Source: a phage. From it: a stretch of 64,000 nucleotides of DNA. A program made the translations under genes and the position numbers. Below are positions 1 to 59,165 of the stretch, one piece after another. Positions within the stretch are counted from its first letter, which is position 1, and every line of letters starts with the position of its first letter. A model generated the notes under the pieces. That model made no database searches. It was given only the letters and a program-made list of their open reading frames with translations, and was not told the DNA's origin. The stretch lies in sequence record PZ386980.1. One strand, given 5' to 3'.

Positions 1-156
1 GCAATTAAAGAGCTTACCAGGAGAAATAAATTTTTCGTCCTGAATCATTTTTAAAATATGTTCCAACGGAAGATTATATTTTTGAGCAAAATAAGGAAGA
101 CCTGATTGCCAGCTTAAACATACACCATCAATATCAGTCAAAATAGTAGGCTTCAT
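1..156 (-). CDS. HAD-like hydrolase (putative nucleotidase), N-terminal 52 codons only; gene runs off the left edge
   Basis: ATG (rev) at 154-156 overlaps stop of upstream ORF (ATGA); translation MKPTILTDIDGVCLSWQSGLPYF.. has a DxDGV HAD motif I. Confidence 0.45.
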   Translation of the reverse strand, partial: MKPTILTDIDGVCLSWQSGLPYFAQKYNLPLEHILKMIQDEKFISPGKLFNC

Positions 157-617
157 AGAGAGTCTCTTAATAGGTTTAACACATCAATAAATTCAGCTTC
201 GGTTAGTATTGTATCATCTTTTGTTAGACTACTAGCCATGCTGTGCTTCAAAACTTTTCCTTTCGAGGCTTGTAATGCATCACGAAAGCCCTTGTTTTGA
301 ATCGCTGCCTCAAAATACGCATTTGTGTATAATTCTTTCCACGCTGGAGAGTATCTTGAAAACGGAACTCCGAGCCAGAAGAGGGTCCCACGGTCCTGAG
401 CTCTAGCATAAGACCTTCCAGCTTGTTGGGCGGCAAGCCCGGATAACCCAAATACACGACGTTGCTGTTCAACATTTTTCACCTTACATCCTTGGAGAAA
501 TCCTTCAAGACCTCCAAATTGGATACCATCCATAACAAAAGGCCATTGGGCGAAATTACTTAATGCACACGATGGCCATCTAAAATTGCTTCTAATCTCT
601 AACTCAGACATTTTCAA
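153..617 (-). CDS. NADAR-domain (YbiA-like) protein
   Basis: 154-aa track ORF; segment NFRWPSCALSNFAQWPFVMDG resembles the YbiA/NADAR FSNF..WP..DG signature as I recall it. Confidence 0.55.
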   Translation of the reverse strand: MKMSELEIRSNFRWPSCALSNFAQWPFVMDGIQFGGLEGFLQGCKVKNVEQQRRVFGLSGLAAQQAGRSYARAQDRGTLFWLGVPFSRYSPAWKELYTNAYFEAAIQNKGFRDALQASKGKVLKHSMASSLTKDDTILTEAEFIDVLNLLRDSL

Positions 618-810
618 TACTTATAATTTCAACATCAGCCCAATGACCATAGCAAGGAAGACGAAATTCAACTGGCCAGTTAGGGTCCTTTTCTAATATA
701 ATAGACTTAACTTGTGGTTCTTCATGTTCATCAGTATATGGATTTTTATCTGTTACTTTATATGTGACCTTAATGTACTGAATTCCAAAAATCTTATTAA
801 TTATATTCAT
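604..810 (-). CDS. hypothetical protein (68 aa)
   Basis: track ORF, tightly packed same-strand array; no recognisable motif. Confidence 0.45.
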   Translation of the reverse strand: MNIINKIFGIQYIKVTYKVTDKNPYTDEHEEPQVKSIILEKDPNWPVEFRLPCYGHWADVEIISIENV

Positions 811-1004
811 ACTAATTCCTTTAATCCGTAAATAGGAGATAATTCATCACCCATACGAAGGTCTTCATTTCCATCTACCCAGGAAACAATATAAGCCTCT
901 TTTATTTGAACACCACTCCATTTAAATGGAGGTAGAACCTTAGAAATTAATCCAGGTATACCAACTCCCTTTAATTCAACAGTTTGACCTAAAAAGAATT
1001 TCAT
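807..1004 (-). CDS. hypothetical protein (65 aa)
   Basis: track ORF; 4-nt overlap with neighbours typical of coupled phage genes. Confidence 0.45.
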   Translation of the reverse strand: MKFFLGQTVELKGVGIPGLISKVLPPFKWSGVQIKEAYIVSWVDGNEDLRMGDELSPIYGLKELV

Positions 1005-1291
1005 TAAAACCTCATCTGAAAACCATGCGATTTAACATTACCACCGCCAATATCAGAAATGTTAATTTCACTCGCAATTGAAGGGTCAATGTCAATTTCG
1101 CGATTGAGTTTAGTGATAGCTAAAGTATCGTGCCCATTTACTGTACGGAACTCTAGAGGACAAACCACATCAACGTAGTTTTTAATCGATTCACTGGTAG
1201 GCTGCAAATGAGCAGGAAGGTCTTTAGGCGCCTTTGAGAAAACAACTTCACAGAAATTTTTGCGGGTATCAAAATAAGTAGTCATAAACAT
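1004..1291 (-). CDS. hypothetical protein (95 aa)
   Basis: track ORF 1004..1342 trimmed to internal ATG at 1291 preceded by GAGGAA RBS; the longer ORF would read through the hairpin at 1309-1322. Confidence 0.5.
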   Translation of the reverse strand: MFMTTYFDTRKNFCEVVFSKAPKDLPAHLQPTSESIKNYVDVVCPLEFRTVNGHDTLAITKLNREIDIDPSIASEINISDIGGGNVKSHGFQMRF

Positions 1292-1331
1292 AGTATTTTC
1301 CTCAGTAAGGGGCCGAAGCCCCTGTTTTATT

Positions 1332-1697
1332 TTAAATATCAAATTCGTTAAGAACTACATCAAAGATTGCTTCAAGATGCTCAGGTTTAGCTCTGTTACT
1401 CAAAATATGACGAATCCAAGTTTTAACCAGAAGCTTACGATTAGCGCCATTCCAGCAAGGATGGGTCCCTAAATCGCGTTGACGAAAATCATCATCCAGA
1501 GCGATTTTGAAGTTTGAACCTTCCATTGTGATTGAAACCGTGATGCCATTTTCAAATCGCATATAAACGTAATTAGGAGTCATATACTGTTCAATTTCGC
1601 ATACTGATCCATTTTGATGTTTCCAAAGGCAAATAGTATCAATAGAACCTGCAATACCATTAGAAACATATTTACGTTCAAAGTTGATGTAGTTCAT
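1332..1697 (-). CDS. hypothetical protein (121 aa)
   Basis: track ORF; early promoter motif 1735-1763 about 38 nt upstream of start. Confidence 0.55.
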   Translation of the reverse strand: MNYINFERKYVSNGIAGSIDTICLWKHQNGSVCEIEQYMTPNYVYMRFENGITVSITMEGSNFKIALDDDFRQRDLGTHPCWNGANRKLLVKTWIRHILSNRAKPEHLEAIFDVVLNEFDI

Positions 1698-1734
1698 TTT
1701 TATTCTCCGAGATGTTTAATTGCGGTACAGGTAT

Positions 1735-1763
1735 ATAATATCATATCCTGTACCAAAGTAAAC
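1735..1763 (-). promoter_or_regulatory. T4-type early promoter
   Basis: minus strand GTTTAC-17nt-TATTAT, about 38 nt upstream of ATG 1697. Confidence 0.55.
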
Positions 1764-1765
1764 AA

Positions 1766-2098
1766 TTATTTTACTACTTTCCAGTGCTTCATGTCAAGTT
1801 TACCAACTTTTTTCATCTTCTCAATCAAACGTTCGGCACGTTGGCGAGCTGTAACATAATACCATTCGCCTAATTCATTTTGTTCAATTTTTCCAACGAT
1901 TACTGTATTCAATTCATAAATCCAACCAGTAAAGAAATTATGAACTTGAATTGTAAAGGTGAAATCTGTTCCCATACCTTCTGTTGTTTCTACTTCAATA
2001 ATATCACCTTCAACTGCCATTAAGAACCACATAGTTTCATCATATTTACCATTGAAGCATTTAGTCTTAACTGCAGCGTTCAGATTAATCGTTTTCAT
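1766..2098 (-). CDS. hypothetical protein (110 aa)
   Basis: track ORF; AAGGAG RBS (rev of 2105-2110) and early promoter 2126-2155 upstream. Confidence 0.55.
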   Translation of the reverse strand: MKTINLNAAVKTKCFNGKYDETMWFLMAVEGDIIEVETTEGMGTDFTFTIQVHNFFTGWIYELNTVIVGKIEQNELGEWYYVTARQRAERLIEKMKKVGKLDMKHWKVVK

Positions 2099-8479: not shown

Positions 8480-10067
<1,588 letters not shown>

Positions 10068-13589: not shown

Positions 13590-13906
13590 AAGTCCTCAAC
13601 TTGAAAATCGTCTTTAAACAATCGGTTAACTATATGAGCTATTATATCACCATGACACGGCTTTGGTTTACATGTGCATCCTAGCCTCATTCCACGTAAA
13701 GGCTCTAAATGTGCTTTAGTTATTTCTCCGGATTTAATTCGACGTATAAAATCTTTTTTGAATAATTCAATGGCAGCCTCCCGGCTGCCAGCATCTTTAC
13801 CGACGTAATTTCCCCAAAATGTACCACGGTGAATATTAACATCAAAGTCGGATTTATATTTATTCACTACTCGGCATATACGGCCTGCGCGGTTGTAAGT
13901 GTTCAT
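13580..13906 (-). CDS. DUF4326-like small protein (108 aa)
   Basis: track ORF; [13 protein letters not shown] motif; GGAAG RBS 5 nt upstream of ATG 13906. Confidence 0.55.
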
Positions 13907-17358: not shown

Positions 17359-17745
17359 TTAGGCCTTAAAAGTTTTTCGCAAAAGTTCAATGATTTCATC
17401 TACATTGTTTTCGTCAACAATGCAGTGAATTTTTGTTACGCCAGAAACTATACCTTCATTAGCGGATTGAGGCTTTTCTAAAGTTACCTCAGTAAAGTAT
17501 TTGAATTCTTCAGAGTAAATCTCAAAATACGTCTCAAGTGGGCCACCCGCCATGTATTCAGTACCATCTTCCATAGTTACACGTACCACACATTCACCAG
17601 CACAATCATCACTTTCCATTTCATCTACAACAAAACTAGGTCCGTGCTTCTCTATTAAATTTAGCATCATTACATTGCAACGGCACTCGTTAGCAAAGTC
17701 ATTTTTAAATAAAGGGTTAATGATATAAGTTTTTCCAACTTCCAC
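17359..17745 (-). CDS. hypothetical protein (128 aa)
   Basis: track ORF; apparent GTG start with GAGGAA RBS 6 nt upstream. Confidence 0.5.
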   Translation of the reverse strand: MEVGKTYIINPLFKNDFANECRCNVMMLNLIEKHGPSFVVDEMESDDCAGECVVRVTMEDGTEYMAGGPLETYFEIYSEEFKYFTEVTLEKPQSANEGIVSGVTKIHCIVDENNVDEIIELLRKTFKA

Positions 17746-17791
17746 TTTGATTTCCTCATTTTAACGGGGCTATCAAATAGCCCCTTGATAA

Positions 17792-18022
17792 TTATTGTTC
17801 AATCAGTCCCATGTAAAATTCTGCGTCTTCAGAATCCATGCCATCGCAATATTCATTAGCCATAAAGCGGGTAAGGTCTTCAAGAGGACCTTCAATGACA
17901 ATAGAAAAATTGCAATAATTGGGATCATCATGAATACTTGTGATACTAAGTTCAGGATAACGATTACGAATAATCTCTTCAATATATTCAAAATCAACGA
18001 TGTCAATATCAACTTTAGCCAT
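17792..18022 (-). CDS. hypothetical acidic protein (76 aa)
   Basis: track ORF trimmed to ATG 18022 with AAGAGG RBS; early promoter 18066-18095 upstream. Confidence 0.5.
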
Positions 18023-31299: not shown

Positions 31300-31307
31300 T
31301 ATAAATA
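31300..31307 (+). promoter_or_regulatory. late promoter of holin gene t
   Basis: exact TATAAATA about 19 nt upstream of t ATG, RBS AAGGAGG between. Confidence 0.7.
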
Positions 31308-31325: not shown

Positions 31326-31982
31326 ATGGCAGCACCTAGAATATCACTTTCGCCCTCTGATATTCTATTTGGTGTTCTAGATCGCTTGTTCAAAGATAAC
31401 GCTACCGGGAAAGTTCTTGCTTCCCGGGTAGCTGTCGTAATTCTTTTGTTTATGATGGCGATTGTTTGGTATAGGGGAGATAGTTTCTTTGAGTACTATA
31501 AGCAATCAAAGTATGAAACATACAGTGAAATTATTGAAAAGGAAAGAAATGCACGCTTTGAATCTGTCGCCCTGGAACAACTCCAGATAGTTCACATATC
31601 ATCTGAGGCAGACTTTAGTGCGGTGTATTCTTTCCGCCCTAAAAACTTAAACTATTTTGTTGATATTATAGCATATGAAGGAAAATTACCTTCAACAATA
31701 AGTGAAAAATCACTTGGAGGATATCCTGTTGATAAAACTATGGATGAATATGCAGTTCATTTAAATGGACGTCATTATTATTCCAACTCAAAATTTGCTT
31801 TTTTACCAACTAAAAAGCCTACTCCCGAAATAAACTACATGTACAGTTGTCCATATTTTAATTTGGATAATATCTATGCCGGAACGATAACCATGTACTG
31901 GTATAGAAATGATCATATAAGTAATGACCGCCTTGAATCAATATGTGCTCAGGCGGCCAGAATATTAGGAAGGGCTAAATAA
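31326..31982 (+). CDS. t: holin T
   Basis: 218 aa; N-terminal TM (VAVVILLFMMAIVWY) plus large periplasmic domain; matches recalled T4 T; late promoter at 31300-31307. Confidence 0.92.
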   Translation: MAAPRISLSPSDILFGVLDRLFKDNATGKVLASRVAVVILLFMMAIVWYRGDSFFEYYKQSKYETYSEIIEKERNARFESVALEQLQIVHISSEADFSAVYSFRPKNLNYFVDIIAYEGKLPSTISEKSLGGYPVDKTMDEYAVHLNGRHYYSNSKFAFLPTKKPTPEINYMYSCPYFNLDNIYAGTITMYWYRNDHISNDRLESICAQAARILGRAK

Positions 31983-34064: not shown

Positions 34065-34074
34065 TATTTATTCC

Positions 34075-52357: not shown

Positions 52358-52414
52358 AACTTTATGTAAAAATGCTTTAAAAATTTCATGGTATAATGAA
52401 TCTAAGTCCTTCCA

Positions 52415-55855: not shown

Positions 55856-56113
55856 TTAACCACCTACACCTGGTGTAGGTGTAACAGTCCAAAGACCTTC
55901 ATTAGCAGTGATCCATTCAGTACGCTGATTTTCTTCATATACTGTAGAATATGCTGCTTTTTCAGAAGGGAATGTCTGATAATGAGCACCAGAAATTTTG
56001 TGAACATCAGAATAAAGAGGGAAAGCTACAGAAATTTCTTTACCCTGAATTGTACCACCATCAACTGTTTGGTCAAATGTTTTAATATTAACATAACCGC
56101 GAGTACTAGCCAT
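55856..56113 (-). CDS. soc: Soc small outer capsid protein
   Basis: 85 aa; MASTRGYVNIKTF..KEISVAFPLYSDVHKISGAHYQTFPSEKAAYSTVYEENQRTEW.. matches recalled T4 Soc; late promoter TATAAATA (rev) at 56144-56151. Confidence 0.9.
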   Translation of the reverse strand: MASTRGYVNIKTFDQTVDGGTIQGKEISVAFPLYSDVHKISGAHYQTFPSEKAAYSTVYEENQRTEWITANEGLWTVTPTPGVGG

Positions 56114-56143
56114 GTAATTCTCCTTTTATTTAAATTACATGAT

Positions 56144-56151
56144 TATTTATA
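56144..56151 (-). promoter_or_regulatory. late promoter of soc
   Basis: exact TATAAATA on minus strand about 31 nt upstream of soc ATG. Confidence 0.65.
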
Positions 56152-56181
56152 ATAAATTCTCGCGGCTTTTAAGACGAGCTG

Positions 56182-56700
56182 TTAATAACCTCGGTCTTGA
56201 CGTGCGAAATTTTCAGCATTTTTCAGGTAATAAAGTTTAAAGATTTCTTCAGCTGTAAGACCAAGACCCTGGAACATATTCAGAACGAAATGGAGAATAT
56301 CAATCATTTCAAATTTAATTTCCAATTGGTCTTGTGGAGACAAATCAGTAATCAGAGTTTCACGGCGTTCACCATGCTGCGACTTCCAAGGCTTCCATAC
56401 AGCAGATGCATCTTTTTCACCATTGCTCATACCACCAAGAGAAGTCAGAAGTTCGCGGAATTCATCATCAATATAATCTTTCTGATTACGCAGCCAATCA
56501 ACAACTTCACCTGCGGTAGCCAAATCATCAGGATGACGGTTATATTCAGGTTTATCTTTAGCTAAACGAACCTGTAGAGATTTCTGCATATCAAGCATAA
56601 CCTGCAGCGGGTCTTTTTCATCACCAAGAATATCCCAGTATTCATTTTGAGCTTTATCAGCGCCTTCAATCAGTTGTGAACATTCGTTAAAGTAAGCCAT
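56182..56700 (-). CDS. 56: gp56 dCTP pyrophosphatase (dCTPase)
   Basis: track ORF 56182..56793 trimmed to ATG 56700 (MAYFNECSQLIEGADKAQNEYWDILGDEKDP..); MotA-type promoter upstream. Confidence 0.88.
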   Translation of the reverse strand: MAYFNECSQLIEGADKAQNEYWDILGDEKDPLQVMLDMQKSLQVRLAKDKPEYNRHPDDLATAGEVVDWLRNQKDYIDDEFRELLTSLGGMSNGEKDASAVWKPWKSQHGERRETLITDLSPQDQLEIKFEMIDILHFVLNMFQGLGLTAEEIFKLYYLKNAENFARQDRGY

Positions 56701-56734
56701 TATTTTTCCTTTCAATTCATGGGTTAGTAGATTA

Positions 56735-56758
56735 ATTATACAATAAATATATAAAGCA
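56735..56758 (-). promoter_or_regulatory. MotA-dependent middle promoter candidate upstream of gene 56
   Basis: minus strand MotA box aTTGCTTTAt then 11 nt then TATAAT; about 35 nt upstream of gene 56 ATG. Confidence 0.5.
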
Positions 56759-56771
56759 ATAAGGAGGACAT

Positions 56772-56972
56772 ATGGTACAAAAATTAATGGCACTTGTTAA
56801 TGCCATCAAAGGTAATAAAAAGCGTATAGCTTTTACTATTTCTGCTATGGTAGGAATTTTACTCTGGAACTTTATTTTATCACCAATTGCAATTGCGCAT
56901 GGTGTTAATATTCCAGTAGTTACTCTTGATACATTTGTAGATTTAGCATTTGCTTTAGTTGGGTTAATTTAA
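56772..56972 (+). CDS. small membrane protein (66 aa), plus strand
   Basis: AAGGAGGA RBS at 56761-56768, ATG 56772; two hydrophobic segments; convergent with gene 61. Confidence 0.5.
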   Translation: MVQKLMALVNAIKGNKKRIAFTISAMVGILLWNFILSPIAIAHGVNIPVVTLDTFVDLAFALVGLI

Positions 56973-57997
56973 ATCTTAGCATATTTAGATAACCGCATTT
57001 TAGCCATCAACCCCTGTGCAATATTATTTTTCATATATTCCATAATTTGTTCAGGGGTTGCACCTTCCTTTCTAATCATATCATTAACATCTTTTGATTT
57101 CCAGGGAGATTTATCCCAAAACATAACCCTTTCTCCTGCATCAACTAATTTAGTCATTCGTTTGATAGTGTCAGGGTGACGAGGTTCATTATCTAAAACC
57201 CACACACGTCTATCTTTAAATGGAACAACTTCTAGGTCTAATTGACCACCTGTAATAGCTATACCATTTTCAATAAAAAGTGAATCTATAGGTCCTTCTA
57301 GAACATATACATCACCATCTTTAACTCGTTCGACTCCATAGATTTTTGTTGCTTCAGGATAAGCTTTGATAGTGATATATTTTTGGGGAGCATCTTTCTT
57401 TAATGCACGTCCTTGAAAAGACTCGGCTTTTCCATTAGCATTATAAATTGGAATAACAAGACGAGGCTCAGAAATTTCCTTTTTGTATGTTCCCGGTGCT
57501 ATGCTATTAACTAATTTAGGCCATTCAGTTGTAAACCAAAGATATTTCCATTTATCCTTTGGAATACAACGAGCTTTTACATATTTTATAATTGGATGGT
57601 CTTCCGCCAGTTTATCTAATCTAACACATGACGGAAGAGATTTAATCATTTTCTTCTCAGGTTGTTTAGGAAGTTCTTTAGGTTTTTCTACTGGACGACT
57701 TTTACCTTTTTCTTTTCTTATTTCAAAGATATACTCACGATATAAATCAGGTTCAAACTCCTTTAAATATATTCCGATTGGTGCATGATAGTTACAGTTA
57801 TAACAATGAATATTTCCTTCATTATTATCACCATAATACCATCCACGAGCTTTATTCTGGTCGGTTTTTGAATCTCCGCAAACAGGGCATCTAAACCGTA
57901 ATTTAAAAGTTGAACTATTATTTACTTGTGTGAATTTAGGTAAATGAGCCAATGCACGATACGCAAACTCATTATCAATCCAAGGTATTGATGACAT
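56969..57997 (-). CDS. 61: gp61 DNA primase
   Basis: 342 aa; zinc-binding CPVCGDSK..HCYNCNYH; matches recalled T4 gp61. Confidence 0.92.
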   Translation of the reverse strand: MSSIPWIDNEFAYRALAHLPKFTQVNNSSTFKLRFRCPVCGDSKTDQNKARGWYYGDNNEGNIHCYNCNYHAPIGIYLKEFEPDLYREYIFEIRKEKGKSRPVEKPKELPKQPEKKMIKSLPSCVRLDKLAEDHPIIKYVKARCIPKDKWKYLWFTTEWPKLVNSIAPGTYKKEISEPRLVIPIYNANGKAESFQGRALKKDAPQKYITIKAYPEATKIYGVERVKDGDVYVLEGPIDSLFIENGIAITGGQLDLEVVPFKDRRVWVLDNEPRHPDTIKRMTKLVDAGERVMFWDKSPWKSKDVNDMIRKEGATPEQIMEYMKNNIAQGLMAKMRLSKYAKI

Positions 57998-58164: not shown

Positions 58165-58210
58165 ATTAACCTCTATTCATAAAAGCATTAAAAATTTGGT
58201 CATCAATAGA
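58162..58210. repeat. 49-bp direct repeat, copy 1 (gene junction module)
   Basis: catattaacctctattcataaaagcattaaaaatttggtcatcaataga; 3 mismatches to copy at 58520-58568. Confidence 0.75.
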
Positions 58211-58522
58211 TGGAATAGCAACCTTTTCGGCATCATTTAGCAAATCATTAATTTCATCAGATAACATAACACATGTGCCTTTATTTCCTGTAATTGTTAC
58301 TGCACAATTACGAACGTTTTCTTTATCAAATTTTAGGTTAATATTTTCGTAGTGAAAATCCTTTAATGCCGAATATATCTTTAAAATGAAATTGTCTTTT
58401 ACTACAATAAACCCAACCTCACTATTAAAACATGGTTCATGGAAACTGTAATAAACCTTTTCATCTATAAAATCGTATGAAATTTTTTCCATTTTTAAAT
58501 ATGAAAATTCAGAACTATACAT
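58166..58522 (-). CDS. hypothetical protein (118 aa), shared C-terminal module
   Basis: track ORF; C-terminus SIDDQIFNAFMNRG shared with next ORF. Confidence 0.5.
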   Translation of the reverse strand: MYSSEFSYLKMEKISYDFIDEKVYYSFHEPCFNSEVGFIVVKDNFILKIYSALKDFHYENINLKFDKENVRNCAVTITGNKGTCVMLSDEINDLLNDAEKVAIPSIDDQIFNAFMNRG

Positions 58523-58568
58523 ATTAACCTTTATTCATAAAAGCATTAAAAATTTGATCGTCAATAGA
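58520..58568. repeat. 49-bp direct repeat, copy 2 (gene junction module)
   Basis: catattaacctttattcataaaagcattaaaaatttgatcgtcaataga. Confidence 0.75.
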
Positions 58569-59165
58569 AACATTTACTTTAGACTGTTCTTCAAACGGTA
58601 ATTCATATCCACATATTACAATTTTGTGATCGATACCAAAATACACAGAAGCAATATGATTAATATTATTTTCAGTGAAATCTAAATCAACATCAATATC
58701 TTTTTGACTAACGCTCAAAGGATAATTAATACGAATAATTCGATTATCTTTAACAAAGATTCCACCGACATACTCTGTGTTGCGTTTAAAGTTTACACGT
58801 TTCCTAAATGAAAAATATTCAGGTTCTTTATGAGCCCGACTCATAGGACACAATGAGTAGCTAGAATAAGAGATGTCAAATCCTACACCTTCAATATGAG
58901 CCAACGTGTCATGATTAAACCAATTATAATCATATGCCAAATCCATTATATTGTAATATGTGAAAGGCACCGGATTAACATCATGTGTTGTACCTTTAAA
59001 ATCTGCCCAGGCAACGATTTCGTTATCTTTAACAATTACAAAAATTGTGCCAATAAGATATCCACGGTTATTTTCATCAGGCGTTATATTATAACATTGC
59101 GCATCAGGAAATTTACCGTATTTAAACGGTGGATTTTTGTGCATATAATAAATCATATTATTCAC
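58524..59165 (-). CDS. hypothetical protein (213 aa), internally duplicated, shared C-terminal module
   Basis: track ORF; two VKDN-containing segments (FVIVKDNEIV, GGIFVKDNRII) and C-terminus SIDDQIFNAFMNKG. Confidence 0.5.
   Translation of the reverse strand: MNNMIYYMHKNPPFKYGKFPDAQCYNITPDENNRGYLIGTIFVIVKDNEIVAWADFKGTTHDVNPVPFTYYNIMDLAYDYNWFNHDTLAHIEGVGFDISYSSYSLCPMSRAHKEPEYFSFRKRVNFKRNTEYVGGIFVKDNRIIRINYPLSVSQKDIDVDLDFTENNINHIASVYFGIDHKIVICGYELPFEEQSKVNVSIDDQIFNAFMNKG

Follow-up and report, generated by a model that had tools for sequence, protein, structure and literature searches.

Organization of the gene 56-61 junction

The window analyzed here is the whole 64,000-nt stretch of phage DNA in sequence record PZ386980.1. 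Positions 56100-57100 of the window are 100% identical to the corresponding region of phages RB51, RB68 and Ac3 (Tequatrovirus). RB51 positions 1-23751 correspond to window positions 40250-64000, and RB51 positions 128146-130000 to window positions 1-1855. The junction is bounded on the left by gene 56, encoding the dCTPase/dUTPase (56182-56700, minus strand; RB51 annotation; phrog_173, 1.5e-46), whose ATG occupies positions 56700-56698, and on the right by gene 61, encoding the DNA primase (56969-57997, minus strand; RB51 annotation; phrog_47, 3e-106). A 66-codon ORF on the plus strand (56772-56972 including the stop codon), present in both the ORF list and the RB51 annotation and matched by phrog_2024, is the sole ORF of at least 25 aa located wholly between the two genes. 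Its product is a predicted small inner-membrane protein. The ORF is convergent with gene 61, and the two stop codons overlap (56970-56972 for the ORF and 56969-56971 for gene 61). A Shine-Dalgarno sequence, AAGGAGGA, is positioned on the same strand at 56761-56768, ending 3 nt 5' of the ORF start codon.

Within positions 1-23751 of the RB51 record, the 66-codon ORF is the only annotated coding sequence that does not lie on the minus strand. The original prediction, made from the letters of the window, had described a 66-aa plus-strand ORF standing alone in the gap and converging on gene 61, and had called it the only plus-strand ORF of an otherwise minus-strand early region; the coordinates bear out the first description and the RB51 annotation agrees with the second. 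A further plus-strand gene, encoding a mobB-like endonuclease, is found at position 31961 of the RB51 record, beyond the window. On the far side of gene 61, two adjacent minus-strand ORFs (58166-58522 and 58524-59165) are both related to 61.2 (RB32ORF033c and 61.2 itself). Both end in IDDQIFNAFMN(R/K)G, and the pair resembles a tandem duplication.

The ORF and the junction are already on the public record, in RB51 and in hundreds of other entries. The GenBank name of the ORF is RB51ORF032, with the product given as 'RB32ORF030w hypothetical protein, similar to RB69ORF029w'. This existing annotation had been missed by the original prediction, as had the presence of the ORF beside dam in T4, the conserved late promoter box upstream of it and the fact that absence of dam is the majority state. 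What the present analysis adds is the evidence for a conserved late gene, the likely topology of its product and the predicted antisense relation between the ORF and the 3'-terminal part of primase mRNA. The importance of these points is modest and the finding itself an ordinary one.

The 66-codon ORF is a conserved gene

The ORF product matches the PHROG 2024 profile with an E value of 1.5e-31, residues 2-66 aligning to positions 1-65 of the 65-position profile. It is a member of the RB32ORF030w/RB69ORF029w family, with which it shares length, genomic position and the W-N...P...G...P...D/E motif. A tblastn search finds the ORF in 693 phage records, about 503 of them at 90% identity or more. 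Orthologues occupy the same position in Mosigvirus (ST0), Gaprivervirus (DK-13, TH40), Jiaodavirus (JD18), Kanagawavirus (ZX14, PEi20) and Dhakavirus (MX01). Six genera of the Tevenvirinae, Tequatrovirus included, therefore carry an intact ORF convergent with gene 61, and the arrangement downstream of gene 56 is shared by T4, ST0, DK-13, TH40, JD18, ZX14, MX01 and PEi20. Scans of the ORF protein and 31 family members against Pfam, NCBIfam and PADLOC returned no family match.

In phage T4 the same ORF is flanked by the dam start and the gene 61 stop. In the T4 reference record (NC_000866) this orthologous 66-codon ORF, at 17738-17938, is unannotated, falling in the 309-bp 'gap' that separates dam from gene 61; the T4 variant record OL964735 does annotate it. 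The T4 reference thus omits a gene whose coding, ribosome-binding and late-promoter signatures are clear and which hundreds of relatives have conserved.

The frame is open over 61-69 codons in all 23 orthologous loci compared, which represent the six genera and have protein identities of 30-55%. Among informative pairs of loci dN/dS is 0.09-0.4, and differences at the three codon positions rank 3>1>2. All 23 loci share a GGAGG or AAGGAG Shine-Dalgarno core in the corresponding position. In an alignment of 31 diverse members, W32, N33 and P38 are invariant, A40, G44, P48 and G64 are conserved in at least 90% of sequences, and all members but one have Asp or Glu at position 53. The resulting family motif, W-N-[FYL]-x4-P-x-A-x3-G-x3-P-x4-[DE], is present in the ORF protein. 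On this comparative evidence the ORF is a genuine gene that has been kept under purifying selection in six genera, and the original claim of a real ORF with a strong ribosome-binding site is well supported.

These data also dispose of the proposal of an untranslated frame that happens to be open within AT-rich intergenic DNA or a 3' untranslated region. The ORF is short, has no entry in the T4 reference annotation, overlaps a terminator hairpin of the opposite strand and is frameshifted in one record, all of which could be expected of such a frame. A chance frame would not, however, stay open in 23 of 23 loci across six genera at 30-55% protein identity, with dN/dS well below 1, several invariant residues and a conserved Shine-Dalgarno sequence, nor would it have relatives beyond the T4-like phages, which an exhaustive profile search recovered. 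The comparative data effectively refute this reading, and we give it almost no weight. The combination of an open frame, purifying selection and invariant residues is explained neither by a chance ORF nor by an element acting purely at the RNA or DNA level.

Disrupted copies of the ORF were seen in two T4 records. In T4_ev240 it is frameshifted by the loss of a single base in an A-run (locus L022, 1400-1610), which suggests either that the gene is dispensable or that the sequence contains an error. In T4_583L it has several small losses (locus L023, 1490-1700); dam is broken in this record as well, so that sequencing error is as likely an explanation as real mutation. The lesions are losses of one or a few bases in low-complexity runs, and we do not take them as a sign of dispensability.

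A late promoter box precedes the ORF

A T4-type late promoter box, AATAAATA, is located upstream of the ORF on the plus strand at 56742-56749. It agrees with the consensus TATAAATA at seven of eight positions, the variant being an A at -13. The predicted transcription start lies at about 56755-56757. T4 late promoters consist of an 8-bp TATAAATA box (PMC2988020; PMC1524935), and A at -13 is the commonest variant of that box, found in 9 of 50 listed T4 late promoters (PMC2988020). Late T4 transcripts can be of either polarity (PMC2988020; PMC1524935).

The element NATAAATA is found 12-22 nt 5' of the ATG in each of the 23 orthologous loci. The box is perfect (8/8, TATAAATA) in ZX14 and MX01, reads GATAAATA in T4, and has 7/8 matches in both RB51 and T4. 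It persists together with the Shine-Dalgarno sequence despite unrelated upstream flanks in the different lineages: RB51 has the gene 56 promoter there, T4 has the dam cassette, and loci L027 and L034 have other inserts. In the record of phage Lutter, an 8-nt promoter has been annotated at the same spot by another group.

The heptamer ATAAATA occurs 11 times on the two strands of the 64-kb window, compared with 37.6±6.1 times in shuffled sequences, a 3.4-fold depletion. Seven of the ten sites other than the one upstream of the ORF are positioned upstream of rIII, 32, 34, 36, 37, t and soc in the RB51 annotation, all of them known late or late-boosted genes. The three remaining sites of the 11 lie away from known late genes, at 9017-9023 (plus), 13857-13863 (minus) and 34065-34071 (minus); their settings are antisense within rnlA, the nrdA.2/nrdA.1 junction and just 5' of arn.4. 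These three may be unlisted late promoters.

Because every one of the 23 loci has the box, and because the heptamer is depleted and otherwise mostly marks known late genes, we infer that the ORF is probably a gp55-dependent late gene, with the conserved box as its predicted promoter. The locus resembles the T4 late genes t, soc, rIII and 36, which are served by gp55, gp33 and gp45, in that the box lies at a typical distance from a strong ribosome-binding site, carries the commonest variant (A at -13) and directs transcription along a strand used only by late transcripts. Unlike those genes, the ORF has a box with a 7/8 match and a promoter that is predicted, and this box occupies the spacer of a middle promoter that points the other way. 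Searches of the literature on names for the locus, T4 ribosome profiling, small proteins and transcription-start maps returned nothing on the ORF.

The gene 56 promoter and a predicted antisense overlap with gene 61

The minus strand of the same interval contains a predicted MotA-dependent middle promoter for gene 56 (56758-56735), composed of a MotA box, TGCTTTA, at 56758-56752, an 11-nt spacer and the -10 element TATAAT at 56740-56735. This arrangement corresponds to the middle-promoter definition of (a/t)(a/t)TGCTT(t/c)A about 12 bp 5' of a sigma-70 -10 element and without a -35 element. The strict pattern of TGCTTTA, 11 nt and TATAAT occurs four times in the window against an expectation of 0.15, and the gene 56 example aligns with, and is homologous to, the promoter 5' of T4 gene 56. 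The T4 record names the transcript from that promoter as the oriA primer. By these measures the predicted promoter is a textbook MotA-type middle promoter, as the original prediction had it. One perfect MotA-box plus TATAAT match in the window, a plus-strand one located at 52373-52397 in the srd-modA interval, has a polarity opposite to that of all known middle transcripts; it could be a chance occurrence.

In RB51 the late box of the ORF falls inside the 11-nt spacer of the gene 56 middle promoter, on the other strand. The 71 bp between the two start codons consequently contain two promoters and two ribosome-binding sites. Leftward transcription of gene 56 would begin at the MotA/AsiA-dependent middle promoter, and rightward transcription from the gp55-type late box AATAAATA would lead through the strong Shine-Dalgarno sequence into the 66-codon ORF.

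A terminator scan also identified an intrinsic-terminator-like hairpin followed by a U-tract on the minus strand (56774-56809). The hairpin spans 56809-56784 with 11 base pairs, the U-tract reads UUAAUUUUUG, and the structure lies opposite codons 1-13 of the ORF. Folding of the minus strand gives -12.4 kcal/mol (z -3.8), and folding of the plus strand is no better than that of shuffled sequences. The same hairpin is annotated as a terminator in the record of phage fPS-65. It is present in T4 and absent from the other genera, and the layout is specific to Tequatrovirus. If the hairpin is used as a terminator, gene 61 transcripts would continue about 185 nt beyond the gene 61 stop codon, antisense to nearly the whole ORF, and would end just short of the gene 56 promoter. 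In the tequatroviruses, gene 61 transcripts thus appear to cross the antisense strand of almost the entire ORF, and the early/middle primase mRNA would be complementary to the late mRNA of the ORF. On the plus strand, the terminator scan found no terminator downstream of the ORF within 56972-57300.

The other genera are arranged differently at this end of the ORF. In JD18 (locus L007, 2165-2182) a GC-rich hairpin, AGGGGCTTCGGCCCCT, separates the convergent stop codons of the ORF and gene 61, and in TH40 (locus L004, about 2693-2720) a hairpin directly follows the ORF stop codon. A hairpin so placed resembles a bidirectional terminator, in contrast to the Tequatrovirus layout. DK-13 has a gene for a homing endonuclease between the ORF and gene 61.

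The tequatrovirus layout raises the question of whether the main function of the locus is exerted by RNA, the ORF and primase transcripts forming a temporal switch with the peptide as a secondary product. A late transcript antisense to gene 61 could act by transcriptional interference or by cleavage of double-stranded RNA, in a manner like that of type I toxin-antitoxin loci. The overlapping stop codons fit this proposal, as do the lack of a detected plus-strand terminator within 56972-57300, the hairpin of the gene 61 strand at the far side of the ORF, which would leave about 185 nt of gene 61 mRNA complementary to ORF mRNA, and the precedent of T4, in which transcription of both strands, at different times, is noted for several sites (PMC2988020). 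Against it, what is conserved across genera is the protein sequence and not the nucleotide sequence, and the convergent genes are separated by a GC-rich hairpin in Jiaodavirus and by the homing endonuclease gene in DK-13. This separation means that the overlap is lineage-specific and the protein is not. Compared with a type I toxin-antitoxin arrangement, gene 61 transcripts are predicted to end past the ORF, which makes the overlap plausible, and the overlap is absent in the other genera. A primarily RNA-level function is accordingly improbable in our estimation, and a protein product remains the preferred account of the locus.

Predicted structure and topology of the ORF protein

The AlphaFold2 model of the protein, based on a 31-sequence alignment, has a pLDDT of 77.8 and consists of three helices (residues 2-12, 16-42 and 52-62). 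A membrane-spanning segment is predicted at approximately residues 19-42, with a mean hydropathy of 2.0-2.6; over 44 family members the central helix has a mean Kyte-Doolittle hydropathy of 2.14. The N-terminal segment preceding it carries a mean net charge of +3.0 in the 44 members and +5 in this protein. For the C-terminal segment in the same set, net charge averages -1 and the best 19-residue stretch has a hydropathy of 1.48. This protein ends in ALVGLI, and its last 25 residues are hydrophobic with a net charge of -2. Foldseek searches against viral and PDB structures recovered only the protein's own family, and nothing above noise came from a profile search of PDB sequences.

The original prediction had assigned two hydrophobic segments to a membrane protein. 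The membrane assignment stands, since the first segment is a robust span throughout the family. The second is a hydrophobic C-terminal helix, of 11 residues in the AlphaFold model and with a conserved Asp/Glu, and probably does not make a full membrane pass. It is fully hydrophobic in the Tequatrovirus and Gaprivervirus sequences, where its hydropathy is 1.9-2.3, and these versions may adopt a two-span hairpin topology. For the family as a whole, the model is most consistent with a late, single-pass inner-membrane protein of N-in orientation that has a short, acidic, amphipathic C-terminal helix at the outer face. Taken together, it is highly probable that the ORF is a real gene, expressed late, that encodes a membrane protein.

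A plausible picture of the molecule follows from this model. The protein would be made late and inserted in the inner membrane with its cationic N-terminus in the cytoplasm. Its single membrane helix contains the invariant Trp-Asn pair, which probably serves helix-helix association, either with itself or with a partner. The membrane helix would be followed by a Pro-x-Ala...Gly...Pro turn and then by the short acidic amphipathic helix at the periplasmic face. Association of membrane helices is commonly driven by a buried Asn, and self-association or partner binding is thus the likeliest molecular activity of the protein.

Relatives outside the T4-like phages

An exhaustive profile search of 1.84 billion representative proteins returned only 20 clusters, all of small proteins with the same motif. 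Some of these relatives are encoded in siphovirus-like prophage contigs from metagenomes, downstream of the tail-tip gene (distant members were found in contigs L014, L016, L018, L019 and L021). In four of the five contigs that show the upstream flank, the gene directly follows one for endonuclease VII or a SegE-type GIY-YIG protein, and the GIY-YIG or endonuclease VII gene is linked to the family member by an overlapping stop/start. A Phage_lysozyme gene is found 60-1500 bp from the prophage family members, and 10-2000 bp from them there is a gene whose product combines an N-terminal membrane span with a coiled coil. The prophage members also adjoin a variable cargo slot containing either a RelA_SpoT protein (PADLOC match PDC-S33) or a DUF3800 protein. 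In tblastn searches of the phage collection, the prophage-type sequence P0134 gave no match and P0128 matched only T4-like phages.

Candidate roles of the protein

Small late membrane proteins often control lysis, exclusion or host defence, and the ORF would add another to the best-studied phage family. We tentatively put forward, as one possibility, that the protein has an accessory part in the envelope or lysis phase of infection. The loose closeness of the prophage relatives to Phage_lysozyme and coiled-coil membrane genes points weakly in this direction. To our knowledge, T4 lysis genetics (t, e, rI, rIII, sp, pseT.2/3) has never implicated the ORF.

A more specific role in lysis would be that of a holin or pinholin, which accumulates in the inner membrane late in infection and forms the holes that release endolysin. 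Like the class II/III holins and pinholins (S21 68, T4 T), the ORF product is small, predicted to be late and located in the inner membrane, and has a cationic cytoplasmic segment; submitters or UniProt name orthologues 'Holin' in vB_EcoM_OE5505 and 'putative holin' in Klebsiella phage KP1079, and the distant prophage relatives lie near a Phage_lysozyme gene. These record names carry no stated evidence, however, and comparison of all 31 family members with the holin families of Pfam, NCBIfam and PHROG gave no match, even with E values allowed to reach 10. The positive charge lies at the N-terminus, and the hydrophobic, acidic C-terminus is no strongly charged cytoplasmic tail. In RB51 the endolysin gene e (65480-65974) is far from the ORF (16523), and these phages already have the holin T, whose gene (159471-160127 in RB51) has a late box of its own at window position 31301. 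Of four features of holins that could be checked, at least one membrane-spanning segment is present, and the other three, a charged C-terminal tail, a family match and an adjacent endolysin gene, are lacking, in which the protein is unlike S21 68 and T4 T. We therefore consider a holin function to be improbable, on a par with a function in RNA.

The other role commonly filled by such proteins is in host interaction or exclusion, in which the product would block a superinfecting phage or would counteract or trigger a host defence, as Imm and Sp do. The ORF protein is similar in size to T4 Imm, Ac and RI, which likewise have a single or double membrane segment, its membrane location is like that of Imm, and the prophage relatives adjoin the cargo slot with RelA_SpoT (PDC-S33) or DUF3800. 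Imm, Ac and RI show no similarity to the ORF by any search, and their genes belong to the early strand. Imm and Sp are early genes on the early strand, whereas the ORF is on the late strand, downstream of a late box. PADLOC gives no match to the ORF protein, and the gene is core-like across genera, unlike defence and anti-defence cargo, which is usually variable. An exclusion or host-interaction factor is for these reasons an unlikely identity for the protein.

A more ambitious version of the reading as a late membrane protein can be outlined. The product could be an overlooked, family-wide late membrane factor of the T-even phages that acts in lysis timing, lysis inhibition or envelope remodelling through its invariant Trp-Asn motif, with an additional antisense coupling to primase mRNA. 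If this were so, the antisense coupling in the tequatroviruses would constitute a temporal switch between replication and late functions. We regard this combination as speculative and, as a whole, unlikely.

The dam cassette at the junction

The gene order in T4 is 56, dam, 66-codon ORF and 61, and T2 also carries dam between gene 56 and the ORF. The statement in the original prediction that T4 and T2 have dam in this neighbourhood is thus correct. No gene resembling the approximately 260-codon T4 Dam is found at the 56-61 junction of RB51 or elsewhere in its genome; the statement that nothing of methyltransferase size is present at the junction holds, and the absence of a methyltransferase extends to the rest of the genome. 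When T4 Dam was used as a tblastn query, with the window and RB51 positions 1-130000 jointly covering the whole genome, the best E value was 0.19 and no Dam-like sequence emerged; the RB51 annotation lists no methyltransferase. We therefore reject relocation of dam to another site, the outcome that the original prediction had named as its own possible undoing.

T4-type dam is found in 184 records, compared with about 503 records that contain the Tequatrovirus-type ORF, so that lack of dam is the majority state in the tequatroviruses. Judged by these counts, roughly two thirds of the close relatives of T4 are without dam, and the gene is an optional cassette, which accounts for its absence from RB51. 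The difference between RB51 and T4 or T2 thus concerns the same locus. In T4 and T2 the cassette is inserted between the gene 56 promoter and the late promoter of the ORF, and RB51, which has no dam anywhere in its genome, is without the cassette. The methylase is therefore an optional element of a region already known to be plastic, and its absence is no peculiarity of this genome. The slot also accommodates other genes: in Lutter, fPS-65 and MX01 it contains dam together with a 186-aa ORF, and in Kanagawavirus it is occupied by other small ORFs.
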